Shown here: in pieces, positions 1 through 56,586 of the stretch
Numbering within the stretch: the first letter of the stretch is position 1
Layout of the letters: each line of letters begins with the position of its first letter
Assembly: GCA_046563655.1 (NCBI GenBank)
Contig: CM102285.1
Location: forward strand, 10,974,001 to 11,038,000
Origin: Yuukianura sp. NJ FZ-2021
Lineage: Eukaryota
DNA length: 64,000 nucleotides
Reading direction: 5' to 3'
The notes under the pieces: model-generated
What the model was told of the DNA's origin: nothing
Database searches by the model: none
What the model saw: the letters and a program-made list of their open reading frames with translations, nothing else
Position numbers and translations under genes: made by a program

Positions 1-113
1 ATGTGCCAATCCTTGCAATTGTTTTTGATGTTAACATAATCTCTAGGCCAAACCTTGAATTTCATTAATATTATTAACCTAATAGGTTAGGTTAGGTTAG
101 TTTTTTGCCTTAC

Positions 114-1826
114 TTGTCATGGACGGTAATAATGAAGTCTTTGAAAAGTAAAATGTTAAAATCCACATCTTCGTTTTCTTTTCGATCTTTTACAGAATCT
201 GGAATTAGTCTCAAGGAAAAGAAAGTGTAATGCTTGTAGGCTTCAATTTTCTCTTCAGTATTTCCCTCTCGAATGTCATTAATTGTTAAATCATGCACTC
301 CGTAACTGTTGAAGAGAATTGCAAAGTCTTGTTCATTTGGATCATAGATATTTAGCCAGTAGTTTTTGGCTTTGAGGAGTCCAGCAAAGTCTGGTGAAAG
401 TTTTTCAATCATATCCGATTGGAGGAGATTAGTTTTCTCTGAGAAGTACAAGTATTTAGTAGGACGGAAATGTTTGAACTTGTTGAAATCTAGCGTATTG
501 TTGGCATTGTTATCAAAGGGGACAGTCACAAAGGACGGTATAATTGGAACCTGGAAGAAAAGTAAACAAAAGTTAATTAAAGTTTCATTAAAAGTTGAAA
601 TTATAAACAAAACTGCTCAAATCCATGCTATCAAGCAGGCCAATTCCAAGTACGGGAAAATTTCAAAAGCTTTACCGTTTCTTCGGCTTCGGTAAATTCA
701 ATGTCCAGTCGAGTCGAAGCATCAGTAAAATTTGATTGTCGGTAGACGTTCTGTTCGTCCCGTCCTTTCTTAAGTTTTTCGTAAATTGTAATGACCTCAG
801 TCAAGGCCGTATTTTCAATAGACATTAGCCGAGTCCTTCTGCGTACTCGATTGTGATGAGTTTCCTCTTTCTCAGCAGTTTCCATTTCCTCCGACTAGGA
901 TTTCAAACAAAGAAGCACTTTTAGTATAGTCATTTCCAGCTAGGTTTTTAAAATTTTTTAATGCTGTACTTAAATTGTAGGCGTTAGCTGAAATTACAGC
1001 CAAATTTGTTGGGTAATGCAAACCTTGACGAAAATTAATGGCGATTTCGTAATGGCCATTAGAAATTGAACGATTTTGGCCAATGTTAGCAAACTATGGA
1101 GAAACTTGAGCAATCGGAAGAACTAAAATTTGTCCTTGGAATCTTAGTGCTGTCGCTGGAACACTTTTTTCTGGAAGCATTCACTTTTGAATACTAAACG
1201 CTGCTCTGGAAAATGTTCTAGAAATCCTACAATTCTGGAACGAAAACATTGACGTATCGATAGAAATTAGGAAAGTATCATGTAGTTTCATTCCTTTTTT
1301 TAGAAAAACACTGGATTACGTGACAAATTCGAAATGGATTATAGAGTTTCGTTCGTGATGAGAACGATAGGCATAGAAAATAATGAAGGATACACGTATT
1401 ATCGATGGTACACTCATTAGCAAAACAGAATGGAGTGCTTTTTCCGATGGTTTACCATTACGTAAATCCCTTAGCATGTCAATAATATTTCGCACGTTTT
1501 TTGTTGTTTCTTGCAAACAAAATTTAGTCACTTTTAAAAGTCCTTCAACCTCCTGAATCTGCTCTGAAGGTTTGTTAACCCACATTTTACAACGGAAACT
1601 ATTTTTGCGAAAACTTTGGGAATTTTACCAAAACCGGAGAAGAGGAATAGGCTGCGTTGTCGATTCCGTCTTCTTCAGTTGTTGACATTGCCGAACCACG
1701 GCGGTACCTCGTGTAGTTCCGGATCAAACTGGGGTCAATGTAGTTGTAACTGAAGTGTGGCCTACGAACCATTGTCGGTGACGATAATTGATTAGGCGGT
1801 GATCCATCAGTTATTGAAATTCGCAT
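114..1826 (-). CDS. CorA-family Mg2+ transporter, fungal Alr1/Mnr2-like; 3' part runs off the window; exons 1826-1629, 894-676, 550-114
   Basis: Exon 550-114 encodes YWLNIYDPNEQDFAILFNSYGVHDLTINDIREGNTEEKIEAYKHYTFFSLR...FNILLFKDFIITVH, the CorA funnel-domain pattern W-L-D..P....L...F-G-I-H-P-L-T-x-E-D-I...T-R-E-K-x-E. The two upstream exons join in phase 0 through GT-AG introns (TTG/gtaaaa...tcctag/TCG and ACG/gtaaag...ttccag/GTT). A donor AA/gtaagg follows at 114. The TM helices and GMN motif are not in the window. Confidence 0.8.
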
Positions 1827-6088: not shown

Positions 6089-6956
6089 ATGTCGCCTGTG
6101 AAATACATTGGTCGGCGTTCTGCGAGTTTTGGAAAGCCACTTTGGGAAATTGTGCTGAACTTGAAGGAATTCGGAAAAGGAAGGATAGTTCAAAGGACAC
6201 GATACACTCAAGTGTATCCAGATGAACCCACTTTCTACCGTATCCTGCGTGTGGAGCCGCATAACATCGAATATCCACCGGTATGGATGTTTATATAAAA
6301 TCTGGATAGGAAATCAGCTTTCATTCACTTAAGTTGATTGACGCATTTAACGAAACAGTTATTTCTAAATAGGGGAGAATGCTGGGGAACATTTGGACCG
6401 AAGTTACTTTCCGGGGACGAAAATATGATGAACCGCTCAATTTGGGAAGTGTAGGTTTTACGGATGATTTTCAGTTGATACCAAAACACGAAGAAGACGA
6501 ATTTTGTAATCGTGGACGCAAGCATGTTACGCCAATACACATCCTGCCGCGGACAGCTCCATTTCCGCCTCTCTGGGAAGTAAGTTGAAAAGCAGCAAGT
6601 GTCATTGTATGTAAGGTTGCTCAGGAATTTAAGTACTGACAGGAAGAATATAAGTGTTACTACTTAGGTGAACGATGTTTTTTTTTCAGGAATTATTGCG
6701 AAGGCAGCAAGCCAAATCCAATAGCGGAAAGGCTCCACCGAAGATTCCGGAGTTACCGCTGGTTTATAATTTCGATGGGAATCCATTGAAGAAAGTTGCA
6801 GCCGAAGGGGAGGAGCCAACAGTAAAGATTACGACGGAACATACCAGACCTCGTTGTCCAGAATTATACGAAGGAGTCATTTTCGACAGAGCTGAAGCGA
6901 GTGAAGTCTTCGCAAAGCTCCACAATTCTAGAAAATATCCCTCAAATGCACAATAG
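6089..6956 (+). CDS. mRpS34: Mitochondrial ribosomal protein S34 (mS34), 221 aa; exons 6089-6280, 6373-6579, 6690-6956
   Basis: MSPVKYIGRRSASFGKPLWEIVLNLKEFGKGRIVQR...YPDEPTFYRILRV...WTEVTFRG...DDFQLIPKHEE...ILPRTAPFPPLWEELL matches the mS34 pattern. Both introns are GT-AG, phase 0. Confidence 0.92.
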
Positions 6957-12395: not shown

Positions 12396-15300
12396 TCAGA
12401 CAATTATTGGCGTTTCCTTTGCAAAGTGGTGATGGTAATGGTGGTGAATGTGTTCATGAACATGGTGGTGTTCTTGACGCTTTGAAATCCCTGAAATTGC
12501 TGGAATCTGACGCGAATATTCTTGCTGAAAGTTAAAACAGGGTTTTGTGGTAGCGGAACTGTTCTTGTCTCCGATGTTTTCTCGCTCTAGCCAATTGATG
12601 ACTTGCGCCATGGCTCTGGCGTGATCTTCTTCTCGATTTCTATGTTTTAGCTGATGTGGGGTCACAGGGGTCAATTTGTTTAAAATGTTTTTGTTATTGT
12701 TAATCGTGTTTTTATTTCTTGGAGAAAGCGGATGCTGCTGAGCTGAGTTAAGAACACAACCGCTCAGAATTTCCAAACTTTCTTCGTGACTACATTGGTG
12801 GTGATGGGAGTTGCAATGAGCGTTTGTTCCAGAAGAGTATTGATTGTCTCCTATGAATTGGTATTTGAATGCATTTTCTGTGAGGTCATGTGACCTTGAC
12901 CTGTGGTGACTATGCTTCTTACACCCTCGGAGGAATTTGGCACCAGGAGAATTTTCAAAGAACTTGACCGTCCGAGCTGAACAATTGTTTCCGTCCAGAA
13001 CTTTGTCATTGTTCAGAAGAGGCAAAATAGGACAGTTGGGGTCAAGAAGATGATTGTGAGTACAAAGCGGTGAAGGAGGATTTGGTTGTTGACCTTTGCT
13101 CGCTGGTTGACCCGTGGAGTCATTACGACAGCAGTGGTAAACGTTGTTCTTTTCCATATTGGCTTGAACGAGGTCACAGAGGTCAGGCTTACAGTGACGC
13201 TCTCTCCACTTTTTCCGATGCCGCATTGGAGATGCTCCGCAGTCGCGGATAACTTCGGGTAGCAGGTTACGACATCCGCGACAGTCCTGTTGGTTCTGCG
13301 TCGTGCCATTCGGTATACGAACGGAGTGGAACCGCGGCTTCTCATGACGACGTTCACGGTGTCGAACGCTTCCGCCGCCATGTCGATTCAAGTTCTCACG
13401 AATTGTGACGTTAACATTGTTCCGAAGTTTCGTCCGCGTGGGAGTTGTTGTCGTTTCAAGCGTTACTCCAGACGTGCCAGAATTGGCCGAGAGTCCGCAA
13501 CCCATTTGAACTTTGGCCAAGGTTTCTGGGTCAGCAGTTGGAATATTGTTATTGACAAGGTTCGTTTTCTGGGTCAAGTTTTCGTCAGCAGCGTCTTTTT
13601 GTTGCTGTTGCTCGGGCGTGACTGTCAGTCTTACTTTGATGGTCTTCTTTCCACCGTGGGGAACTGTAATTGAGTCGTTCACGGCACCGTAGATACTTCG
13701 TACAAGGCCAGCAATATCCTAAAAAAATAATTTTTTTTTGTAATTTCGAATTTGTAAAAAGTTAGATTTTTAATTAGTTCTTACATCTTTAGTTATTTTT
13801 CCATGTCCGTCAAGGTCATAAAACGTAAACGAAAATTCTTTCCGTTCTTCGCCAGATTCAGTTCCTTCTACTTGGACATCACATTCAAAGTCCTGCAAAA
13901 TCACACAAAAAAATTCAATTAAAAATCAAATAAAACTCAAAAGGAATTCAATTCCATAACTCATATTTCTCGTTAAGACTTTCAATTTGACAAGGACTTT
14001 GCCGACAATTGGCAAAGAATTCATTAACCCATTTCTGAAAATTTTAACACGCTACAAAAAGTAACCGCCCATTTGACGTTTACACTTTCCCTGTCCTTTT
14101 AACTGCCTTATTAGGAGCTGCTTAAGTGCTTAAGTGGATTTATCTCTTTCGTTTTACACCTACAATTCAGTTTTATTTCCTTGATCAGTTTCCGAAATTC
14201 TAAAAAACTGTCTTCAATTTCGTTGTTATCAAAATCGAACCAGATCAATTGGGTAAAAGACTTTTCAAGTATCATTTGATCGTTGATCCAAAAACTTTTC
14301 ATTGCAAGCAACTTTTGCACGCAAAAAAGATGATTTATGTATCATCCTACCGTAACATTTTAAATTTATTTCAGAACTTGCGTGATGGTTGTGTGTCTTT
14401 GCGACCATAATGCGGCACTAAAAAATCACTTTAGGAGTGCACTAGTTGACATTTTTTTTCTTATTCGGCGCAGTGGAACGGCAAAATCCACTTGAAGCAG
14501 AACAATAATTACATGACTTGATTGTGTCAACTTTTGAGTTTTGAAATGAATCCGCTTCATTAACAAACAAAGACTGACTGAGCCGCTGATTTGAAAAGCG
14601 ACTCACTGTCTCTTCTTCTGTCGGCTCAAAAAACTTTGTCAATCAGTGATATGCAACGCAATTGAAATTAATTTTTTAATTTCAATTTTATGTTCGTTTC
14701 ATTTTTAGCTTTCTCTGTTTTTCAGTTGCCGACAGAGAACCTCACGAGTCCACGGACTCATATACTAGCTCCGGTGAAGCCCATAGGAAGCGTAAGCTTA
14801 ACTAGGAATTGGAGTGCAATAAAGCGCGGACGCTGAATCATTTTTACAAAGATGACGAAAACACTCAGGCGAAAAAATGCGTTGCATAAAGTACTTTAGA
14901 TAAGAGTTCATTCCTCAACGGAAGAATCAACTGAAAAATAAACATCAACTACGGAAGTGACAGCAGCAGCAGCACAGGCCAAAGGTGTGTTTTAGTTCCT
15001 AGGCCGTAATATTTACAAAATAGAAAACAAAAACACTAAAACTCACTTAAGAACTGAAATGGAAAACGTTTCAGCAAAGAAAATTGATTGACTTTTGTAA
15101 AGATTGACACTTGGAATCAGATCCACGTTTCTAAAACTGTTGGTTCAACAAATCGACTTTTTGAGAGGTTACGTTTCAAATCAATTTTTCGAAAGTGGTT
15201 TAGGCAACTCCTCGAACTTAACAGAAACCGCCGCACTCACTGAATTCTAATTAGAAATTGAGAAAAAAAGTTACTTTGTTCAGCTAAATATTTGGTCTGG

Positions 15301-54580: not shown

Positions 54581-54969
54581 CGACATTAGGGTGACAGGAT
54601 ATACGTCGCTTAGCGACAAAAAGTGTTTCCCGAATTTAGGAATTTTTTGGGTGGGATTTATTTGAGCTGTCATGGCGGCATAAACGATTTTTGATCGGAA
54701 TGACGATGTCTCCACAATTGTAGGGTTAAAAGATCGGAGGTTGCTTCTGAGATGACAGAGCCTCAAGAATTAATGTGTCATATTGAGTTGTAACACATTG
54801 GATTGGTATGGGTGTAGAATATACCCTATGGTTACACCGGATGCACCCTTGGTTTACTTCAACCGGCTTTGCACAAAAAACACAACACGATTCAGACATG
54901 AGGAATCGAGACGTCTCGATTTCACACATCAGAAAAAAACATATGAGGCGAGATACATCTCAAATCGAG

Positions 54970-55330
54970 ACATTAGGATTTCTGTTGCGTTTTTGATTTC
55001 GGACGTCTCAAATTTCACACATCTGAATTCCTGTTGTGTTTTTGTAATTTGAGATGTGTTTAATTTCACACATCTGAATTCCTGTTGTGTTTTCGTAATT
55101 TGAGATGTGTTTAATTTCACACATCTGAATTCCTGTTGTGTTTTCGTAATTTGAGATGTGTTTAATTTCACACATCTGGATTTCAGTTGTGTTTTCGTAA
55201 TTTGAGATGTGTTTAATTTCACACATCTGAATTCCTGTTGTGTTTTCGTAATTTGAGATGTGTTTAATTTCACACATCTGGATTTCAGTTGTGTTTTTGT
55301 ATTTCCAGATGTGTGAAATTTCACACATCA
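54970..55330. repeat. 51-bp tandem repeats in right TIR (about 6-7 copies)
   Basis: ATCTGAATTCCTGTTGTG recurs at 55021, 55072, 55123 and onward, which produces the 17-aa repeat ORFs in the track. Confidence 0.92.
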
Positions 55331-56586
55331 GAAAATCCAGATGTAAATTTGTTGAGGAATATTGCGGGTTTTCTCCCCTCATACTTCCTTGTCCCAACTC
55401 CTTCCAGCTCTAATTTGATGGATCTCTTGACTCTGTAACTTTCTTTTCCCGCATTTCCAAAAAAGAGAAAGTACTCGGCAGGAGAATCTCTCATATTTTA
55501 ATTTAACACAATCCTCACAAAAATTGAAAAAAAGGAAAAGAAAAGTTTTGAATATTAAAGTTTACTTTTCACTTTTAGTGAAAAGGACGCTGCGTCCTGG
55601 ATGCTGGAAGAGCTGGAAGCGTATTTTCACCACCAGTGAAAGTTTTAGCGGTGAAACAAAAACCAAACCCACAGAAGAAGTTTGGTTTTTCTAATCCAAA
55701 CGTTTTTTTAGGTTTGGGTTCCTGCGTAGCGTCAATTGAAAAAGAACTCCGAAAATCAGCGGACTTTCACTGTTATCAAAGTTAATCAAAGCATAACTTA
55801 AAATTTCAAAATTTCGATCGCGTCATTTTTTTCATTAAAAATATTTGTAGCTTCCCAGCACCTAAACGTTTCGAGAAGTTTTACAAAGTTAGTTTGTGCT
55901 AACTGCTAAATTCCTTTAGCCCCGAAATTTTGAAATTTGAAACCAAGGACTCCGTATATGGTGCTTTAACTTTTCAAACTGCTTTCACCTGTGAGCCAAT
56001 TTCGTGATCCATCACAGGCTAAAGCGTAGTTATTGAACTGCCGAATCCCTTAGTCATTCAATTCGTAGTAGACACGACTATAAAGTCCCCCGAACTAGGC
56101 AATGTACTGGATACTGGCAGTGCTACCTTCCATGTTAGTAGGTAGCACTAGATAGTGGGACTTCAAAGGAAAAGTCATCTTTCATCTTCCGTTTCTTAAA
56201 GAGAAATGATTACAAAGCTCCATTTAATTGCTAAAAACATGGATCCTCATCTGCGCCCTCCTTTCATCCCCCACTTTCTACAAAAATAGCCTCTTAAGGA
56301 CTTCAAACGAAATGGACCCCTTAGAAGTCCTCACATCGTCATTTACGTTTACAGCCCCACGACACGCAGTAGTCGTCGCGGTAGTTGTTGCAGCACATCT
56401 AATGTAATAAGTAATAGGAAGAGTAAATATTTATTCAATACATTATAAACTATTAAAACATAACTAATCATTATTCTGTCAAAAATAATACAATAAATCA
56501 TTAGAATCCATAATAGATTTTACATTAATAACAATTATGTATCTTACATGATAAGATGTGCCAATTCAAATTAGTTTTTACAAAGT

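Follow-up and report, generated by a model that had tools for sequence, protein, structure and literature searches.

CorA is described as a pentamer that selects hydrated Mg2+ by its GMN motif. Opening is controlled from the M1 and M2 sites in the cytosol, where Mg2+ is coordinated by E88, D89, D179 and D253 (PMC8865849). In fungi, Alr1 and Alr2 at the plasma membrane and Mnr2 at the vacuole belong to one side of the CorA family, which is distinct from Mrs2 (PMC13022745). Microsporidian CorA proteins have been annotated by similarity only (10.1101/110809). For Metazoa only Mrs2 is listed (PMC9276622), and most lineages outside the vertebrates lack even this protein (PMC13022745). Here we describe a CorA gene of the Alr1/Mnr2 side in a chromosome of the springtail Yuukianura sp. 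NJ FZ-2021 (assembly GCA_046563655.1, 98.7 Mb in 22 contigs). It is located at the beginning of a 64,000-nt stretch of contig CM102285.1 (G000:C3:10974001-11038000), hereafter the window. With a probability of roughly 0.78, the gene goes back to a single ancient transfer in which a parasitic microsporidian was the donor and an ancestor of springtails the recipient, followed by intron gain, duplication and purifying selection.

Relationship to microsporidian CorA proteins

Homologs were searched for with the single-exon part of a tandem paralog of the focal gene. Sixteen of the 36 proteins found carry an organism name: 13 belong to Microsporidia, one to the springtail Folsomia candida, one to the sciarid Pseudolycoriella hygida (KAJ6649926.1, on a 193 Mb contig) and one is a louse record; there was no free-living fungus among these 16. 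A profile search revealed six further proteins, none with an organism name, and an exhaustive search gave 1834 matches, 31 of them at E <1e-30. In BLASTP the full focal protein scored 236-339 bits against 12 named microsporidia (37-45% identity over ~400 aa), as seen with the CorA proteins of Astathelohania contejeani, Gurleya vavrai, Binucleata daphniae, Edhazardia aedis [EDEG_00546] and Vairimorpha ceranae [NCER_100486], and 74-139 bits (21-29% identity) against 19 named fungi, rozellids, an aphelid and Pigoraptor. The next relatives after Microsporidia are fungal, rozellid and holozoan Alr1-like proteins. The best cluster in the ESM Atlas was mostly microsporidian (0.97), which we regard as a lead only. 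It should be noted that the louse record, from Menopon gallinae (P0032), is flagged UNVERIFIED_CONTAM and pairs with the CorA of Antonospora (we read the label 'Antlo1' as Antonospora locustae), i.e., it represents microsporidian contamination of the louse assembly.

The focal protein also shares with microsporidia a set of residues that are rare or absent elsewhere. Signatures were counted in 67 aligned rows, comprising 16 animal-clade, 13 microsporidian and 38 other (fungal, rozellid and holozoan) proteins. The Pro of H-P-L, kept in 37/38 others, is replaced by Asp or Glu (H-D or N-E) in all 16 animal-clade and all 13 microsporidian proteins, and the residue preceding D231 (focal numbering) is never E in either group, being E in 37/38 others. 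Similarly, the DDI.D motif of the others (two Asp, in 38/38 and 37/38) has become [IVT]E..Q in 16/16 and 13/13 proteins, so that Q at the D179 site is universal in both groups (16/16, 13/13) and found in 1/38 others. E at aa 416 (16/16 and 13/13) lies outside the four commonest residues of the others, and Q at aa 455 is present in 15/16, 13/13 and 0/38 proteins, respectively. ERSQD and the Q before GMN (P.Q) are common to the animal clade and microsporidia. An N-terminal motif of the EVITIY.K.KKG type (EVITIYEKLKKG in the focal gene) was revealed in 38/46 members of the combined clade and in 0/124 other tips of the first tree described below. In place of the fungal HPLTxED and DDIxD motifs the focal protein has HDLTIND and IELNQ. 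The initial annotation had taken HDLTIND for a variant that may alter gating; the change is real, but it is not a host innovation, since the Pro is replaced in 13/13 microsporidian proteins as well. The animal proteins differ from the microsporidian ones in the D253 equivalent, which is better kept in the animal clade (11/16 versus 4/13), and in having F, L or M before GMN where microsporidian CorA has W.

The first tree included 170 of 189 proteins, namely those covering most of the profile, and placed 46 tips in a clade of animals and Microsporidia and 124 outside it. The named outgroups were Rozella, Paramicrosporidium, chytrids, Mucoromycota, Neoconidiobolus, basidiomycetes, Paraphysoderma, an aphelid (its label 'Partr' is taken as Paraphelidium) and the holozoan Pigoraptor. 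Smaller sets were analyzed under LG+G4 (59 rows, 371 columns) and under LG+C20 with posterior mean site frequencies (PMSF; 43 rows, 330 columns), the latter set being chosen for spread and without the paralog C4a. The animal sequences formed their own clade (100/100 under LG+G4, 99/97 under PMSF), and this clade was joined with Microsporidia at 100/100 in both trees, on a stem of 1.33 and 1.86, respectively. Approximately unbiased (AU) tests under both models excluded the grouping of animals with fungi, with terrestrial fungi or with Pigoraptor, as well as that of Microsporidia with Paramicrosporidium without the animals. Trees forcing animals together with fungi were 255-285 log-likelihood units worse, the range being 252-285 when terrestrial fungi are included. 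AU p-values of very bad trees were unstable between runs (7e-41 versus 0.0125 for the same constraint), the constrained trees are fast searches, and the PMSF guide tree united animals with core microsporidia and is biased toward that topology.

Gene structure, paralogs and chromosomal context

The gene consists of five exons, three in the window and two just outside it, separated by four GT-AG introns (Table 1). Their joined product has 505 aa, with one terminal stop and no internal stop. This assembly bears out much of the initial annotation: the junctions 1629/894 and 676/550 are joined in frame through introns, the peptide segments quoted there are found in the translation, and the complete coding sequence (CDS) contains the two C-terminal hydrophobic helices (~aa 444-465 and ~478-498 by hydropathy) and the GMN (aa 462-464) that had been predicted. 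The proposed CorA funnel-domain exon, exon 3, exceeds the cut-off of PF01544 (E 2.4e-10; 40.7 versus 27 bits), and the mRpS34 gene that had been placed about 4 kb away starts 4.26 kb from the CorA start. The N-terminal extension was described less accurately. It is not of low complexity (2/130 twelve-residue windows at <=2.2 bits), nor is it of fungal length: with exon 1 as predicted, the H-x-L motif begins at aa 225, compared to aa 425-609 in five long fungal-type proteins and aa 126-137 in three microsporidia. Exon 1 was predicted from frame and splice sites alone, and aa 1-66 were matched by no homolog, giving a self-match only.

Table 1. Features of the CorA locus and its neighbour (window positions unless a contig is named)
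Feature	Position	Strand	Description
Exon 1 (predicted)	1629..1826	-	aa 1-66; N-terminal extension rich in Ser and Pro; ATG in frame, GT donor
Intron 1	895..1628	-	734 nt, GT-AG, phase 0
Exon 2	676..894	-	aa 67-139; paralogs and relatives match from aa 82 on
EVITIYEKLKKG motif	763..798	-	aa 99-110; exclusive to Microsporidia and the animal clade
Intron 2	551..675	-	125 nt, GT-AG, phase 0
Exon 3	114..550	-	aa 140-285; N-terminal half of CorA funnel domain; Pfam PF01544
HDLTIND	275..295	-	aa 225-231; D231 = T. maritima D89, N230 = E88
Intron 3	1..113 (begins at 113, runs off window)	-	194 nt, GT-AG, phase 2
Exons 4 and 5 (both transmembrane helices and GMN)	G000:C3:10973919-10973774, 10973662-10973145	-	outside window
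mRpS34 (host neighbour, three exons, divergent)	6089..6956	+	PF16053 on two exons

The gene is not unique. A genome search revealed six loci, distributed over three contigs of 10-15 Mb: C3, the contig of the window, carries a tandem pair, C4 a near-tandem pair and C7 two copies. All six paralogs have reading frames without stops, although the 5' ends of three are incomplete. Together they contain eleven introns, 66-734 nt long, which occupy ten positions; the position of intron 3 is common to the focal gene and the copy C7a. A single GC donor was found among these introns; it belongs to the divergent copy C7b (L011:5189-5490, approximate), where a GC-AG intron of 302 nt is required to keep the frame. 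Single-exon paralogs scored 110 and 112 bits against PF01544 (cut-off 27). In the two neighbouring C4 copies (L009:4026-5402 and L010:3400-5240) GMN is replaced by GTN, and in one of them the entire CorA domain is uninterrupted by introns. In all 15 paralog pairs the proportion of synonymous differences was 0.64-0.81, near or past saturation, and that of nonsynonymous differences was 0.19-0.42 (dN 0.22-0.61), which indicates old duplications under purifying selection.

The copies are surrounded by Vps8, mRpS34, Dus, NOL9, VOMI and SET-domain genes, and the GC content of the CorA CDSs (0.35-0.45) is similar to that of neighbouring host exons (0.42-0.47). Contigs from four public runs (X1-X3 and X5) were aligned to the 10-kb interval between the 3' end of the CorA gene and mRpS34, divided into 30 bins. 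Coverage was complete (30/30) in X2, X3 and X5 and reached 25/30 in X1. X1-X3 belong to a single sample, from which the assembly itself may derive; X5 comes from another study with another organism label, and its contigs diverge from the assembly by ~4% (e.g., 58 letters in 1180) with the same introns. A chimeric join with contaminant DNA, which the initial annotation named among the outcomes that would overturn it, is very unlikely to account for the locus, and the CorA gene is physically among host genes.

Several other features were noticed nearby. On the minus strand at L007:8657-9999 and L006:3-299, immediately downstream of the tandem paralog, there is a weak condensation-domain match (E 0.003); the gene or genes concerned presumably resemble wax-ester-synthase-like acyltransferases and possibly form another foreign family. 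A 440-aa frame without a Pfam match (window 12396-13718, minus strand) ends in a histidine-rich tail, which in our opinion resembles naked cuticle. At 54929-55409 of the window a tandem repeat gives rise to repetitive frames with a period of ~18 aa. Elsewhere on the contig, an alternative oxidase is encoded at G000:C3:1723090-1723815 on the minus strand (PF01786, E 1.4e-72; open frame of 406 aa, domain apparently intronless); a preprint reports that alternative oxidase was acquired by the springtail ancestor (10.64898/2026.06.01.729305).

Origin of the springtail gene

The initial annotation had proposed the transfer of a fungal gene of the Alr1/Mnr2 type to an arthropod. Its assignment to the Alr1/Mnr2 side rather than to Mrs2 holds. 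An intact domesticated CorA of this side is present in an animal chromosome, and horizontal transfer is indeed the best explanation; the grouping with fungi was rejected by the AU test, and a free-living fungal donor does not agree with the identity levels. Since Microsporidia are fungal relatives, the word fungal is correct in its widest sense only.

We propose that a long-branch microsporidian (stem or early crown Eumicrosporea), living as an intracellular parasite, would have donated the gene once to the germ line of a springtail ancestor. After entry the gene would have gained spliceosomal introns and then been duplicated into several subfamilies; six intact copies are kept in this genome under purifying selection. 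The remodelled sensor is of the parasite type, with the D89 and D253 equivalents kept and those of E88 and D179 lost. Onward transfer to fungus gnats probably followed. The direction of transfer is inferred by parsimony: Rozella, Paramicrosporidium and many microsporidia still possess a CorA, so that the parasite lineage had a gene to give, and Metazoa are listed with Mrs2 only (PMC9276622). Because Nematocida has been described as the basal genus of Eumicrosporea (PMC13393502), the transfer maps to the base of Eumicrosporea.

A number of observations weigh against this proposal. The branching order within the joint clade differs between the trees, Microsporidia being monophyletic under PMSF (87/60) and animals being nested in Microsporidia under LG+G4 (46/52), and all three rootings (on Nematocida, on the other microsporidia or on animals) were retained by the AU test with the two models, so that neither tree gives the firm nesting by which direction is usually proved. 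The stem does not attach firmly to Rozellomycota: the grouping of animals, Microsporidia and Paramicrosporidium was retained under LG (p 0.12) and rejected under PMSF (p 0.015), and that of animals, Microsporidia and Pigoraptor was retained under both (p 0.37 and 0.15). The trees contain no metchnikovellid, Mitosporidium or named ascomycete sequences (hence no yeast Alr1/Mnr2), and most relatives in the animal clade are metagenome or read-assembly proteins without an organism name. Finally, among the contigs of the four runs there was no single one across the whole CorA-mRpS34 stretch.

Two of these observations, the position of animals as sister to all sampled microsporidia under PMSF and the lack of support for attaching the stem to Paramicrosporidium, would be expected if an unsampled third lineage, such as an extinct or unsequenced rozellid or protist, were the source for, or the link between, springtails and the eumicrosporean ancestor, in which case the donor was not a true microsporidian. 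We give this a slim chance: the named members among the 46 of the clade are only microsporidia, arthropods and the contamination-flagged louse record, and the length of the stem fits the extreme divergence of eumicrosporean proteins (PMC13393502). Less probable still is transfer in the reverse direction, in which the arthropod lineage that gave rise to springtails would have preserved a holozoan CorA, which diverged there before the eumicrosporean ancestor acquired it. Gene transfers from hosts to microsporidia are known, Pigoraptor possesses an Alr1-side CorA, and the whole clade as sister of Pigoraptor was retained. This route, however, demands loss in nearly all other animals, with Mrs2 alone listed for Metazoa (PMC9276622); the named animals in the homolog and profile searches were only Folsomia, the sciarid and the contaminated louse record, and Microsporidia are not nested inside the well-supported animal clade.

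The remaining explanations find even less room. Fungal donors are common in springtails, accounting for 32.8% of F. candida transfers (PMC5490193), and a free-living fungus as the donor of an Alr1/Mnr2 gene would suit the family side and the rank of fungal, rozellid and holozoan Alr1-like proteins next after Microsporidia. For the sampled fungi this donor is refuted by the AU test under both models, by the lower identity and by the HPL, ED, DDI.D and SH signatures, all of which are replaced in the microsporidian manner, and a fungal source is very unlikely overall. Less credible still is that the protein is an Mrs2 that has diverged, or that unrelated fast-evolving sequences were drawn together by long-branch attraction. 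The microsporidian proteins are indeed long-branched, and fast trees carried a warning that such branches converge on the clade's base; but PF22099 (MRS2-like) gave no match for the focal exons, two paralogs and four relatives, and the 26 PDB matches obtained up to E 10 did not include a single chain of Mrs2 (the trees contained no Mrs2). Moreover, attraction does not raise raw identity, nor does it produce a long stem and a new N-terminal motif in common, and the shared residues together with this motif make it an unlikely cause of the grouping. Least of all do we credit an assembly artefact by which DNA of an infecting microsporidian was joined into host contigs. Such contamination exists, as the flagged louse record paired with Antonospora illustrates. 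Nevertheless, the six copies here are divergent, are located on three large contigs and have introns of up to 734 nt and host-like GC content; orthologous subfamilies occur in other data sets, relatives are present in Folsomia RefSeq and in Holacanthella, and the same introns are seen in an independent run that covers the stretch.

Spread, predicted function and significance

The gene family occurs in further springtails. F. candida LOC110859409 (XP_035715209.1, annotated as MNR2) and P. hygida KAJ6649926.1 belong to the same animal clade as the focal gene, in a subfamily other than its own (100/99), and models of Holacanthella duospinosa are placed there by best-hit tables only. In the Holacanthella annotation table (PMC5644144, supplement 1) six gene models have as their best match EDEG_00546 or NCER_100486, the same microsporidian CorA proteins as in our homolog search; four of them are located on scaffolds of 154-562 kb, and one model is seemingly listed on two scaffolds. 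Together with Folsomia, this puts the family in Isotomidae and Neanuridae. The text and transfer list (file 3) of that paper do not mention these genes, and the list holds no Edhazardia, Nosema or Nematocida entry. Thirteen other rows of the table have microsporidian best matches of another or unknown kind (e.g., Nematocida NEIG_00109, Anncaliia, Enterocytozoon and Mitosporidium DI09_129p80; rows 7689, 14932, 13680, 14023 and others), and two of the thirteen are retrotransposons.

The sciarid protein and one relative without an organism name (86%) group with Folsomia (100/99 under LG+G4, 100/100 under PMSF). Forcing the non-fly sequences together was rejected by the AU test (p 0.011 LG, 0.0005 PMSF) and retained by the Shimodaira-Hasegawa test (0.39, 0.11). 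We somewhat favour onward transfer from springtails to fungus gnats as the simplest reading; transfer of terpene synthases from arthropods to sciarids provides a precedent (PMC11665903), and the alternative is ancient paralogy with loss in all other insects. In two proteins of the fly clade (P0025, P0024) the first 40 aa include 5-6 basic and 0 acidic residues, a composition that hints at a mitochondrial presequence. A broader scenario, which we put forward tentatively and with considerable doubt, is that the transfer predates the split of Entomobryomorpha and Poduromorpha, that springtails thereby gained a non-mitochondrial CorA, absent from other animals and with a sensor of the parasite type, whose family expanded, and that after the jump to sciarids the new presequence-like N-terminus may target the protein to mitochondria, replacing the Mrs2 that was lost in most invertebrates.

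The focal protein is a member of the CorA/MIT (2-TM-GxN) family. Thermotoga maritima CorA (PDB 3JCF, 8TMB) is its best solved match both by profile (E 2.5e-34, with CorA, CmaX and ZntB structures found) and by fold, yet the two share 18-20% identity, and the TIGR00383 score for the bacterial CorA equivalog remained below cut-off (54.4 bits versus 200.75). The predicted model of the tandem paralog, made without the N-terminal motif, has a mean pLDDT (predicted local distance difference test) of 82.7 and displays the CorA alpha/beta funnel and a 75-residue helix (255-329) comprising the stalk and the first transmembrane segment; all its top Foldseek matches are CorA, with T. maritima CorA being the best (E 6e-15, TM-score 0.54/0.63). 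The protein most likely assembles as a homopentamer that has its funnel in the cytosol, a long stalk helix and GMN as the selectivity filter. When aligned to T. maritima CorA, the focal protein keeps D89 (D231) and D253 (D396), E88 and D179 being replaced by N230 and Q322; D175, which has a role in the M2 site, corresponds to I318. Loss of the E88 and D179 equivalents would probably alter feedback closure by cytosolic Mg2+. The protein is probably a Mg2+-preferring channel, with about even chances that its feedback by Mg2+ has changed, and the GTN copies may differ in selectivity. By analogy with yeast Alr1 and Mnr2 (PMC13022745), it would act at the plasma membrane or at an endolysosomal store. 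Genome searches for PF22099 and for PF03219 (the microsporidian-type nucleotide transporter) gave nothing, but the controls were silent too, so that absence is not shown.

Compared with its relatives, the springtail gene differs from microsporidian CorA in its location in an animal chromosome, its long introns, its six paralogs and its longer N-terminus. It shares GMN, two transmembrane helices and the D89 and D253 equivalents with the fungal Alr1/Alr2/Mnr2 side, and differs from it in identity (named homologs sampled; yeast Alr1/Mnr2 not in the set), in its rejection as sister, in a shorter N-terminus and in the changed sensor acids. The alternative oxidase and terpene synthase transfers are likewise ancient, intron-bearing and common to springtails and Sciaridae, whereas their donors were oomycetes or, for the fly, mites, and here the nearest relatives are microsporidia (10.64898/2026.06.01.729305; PMC11665903). 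The CorA family, transfers into springtails and the public annotation of such genes as 'MNR2' or as unexplained best matches are already known. In the literature covered we found no report of this gene or of a microsporidian donor for an animal protein-coding gene; the transfer lists of F. candida and O. cincta were covered only in part and may hold the gene, probably as 'fungal'. This literature offered nothing useful about Mrs2 in arthropods or about microsporidian parasites of springtails. Microsporidia and animals have been reported to exchange transposons (PMC4202319).

The known donors of springtail genes are bacteria, soil fungi and protists, and an intracellular eukaryotic parasite giving a protein-coding gene that was kept and expanded would represent a different route. 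If the proposed origin is true, the gene would be an exception to the view of Metazoa as having no CorA outside mitochondria (PMC9276622). It would also record, as a molecular fossil, an infection by microsporidia that predates the separation of two springtail orders, provide a relative date for the eumicrosporean divergence, and make tractable, as an animal copy, a microsporidian transporter that is not open to genetics in the parasite. The finding would further bear on metal handling in F. candida, a standard animal of soil toxicology. Screens that lump Microsporidia with fungi, or drop such matches as contamination, would miss this class of transfer.

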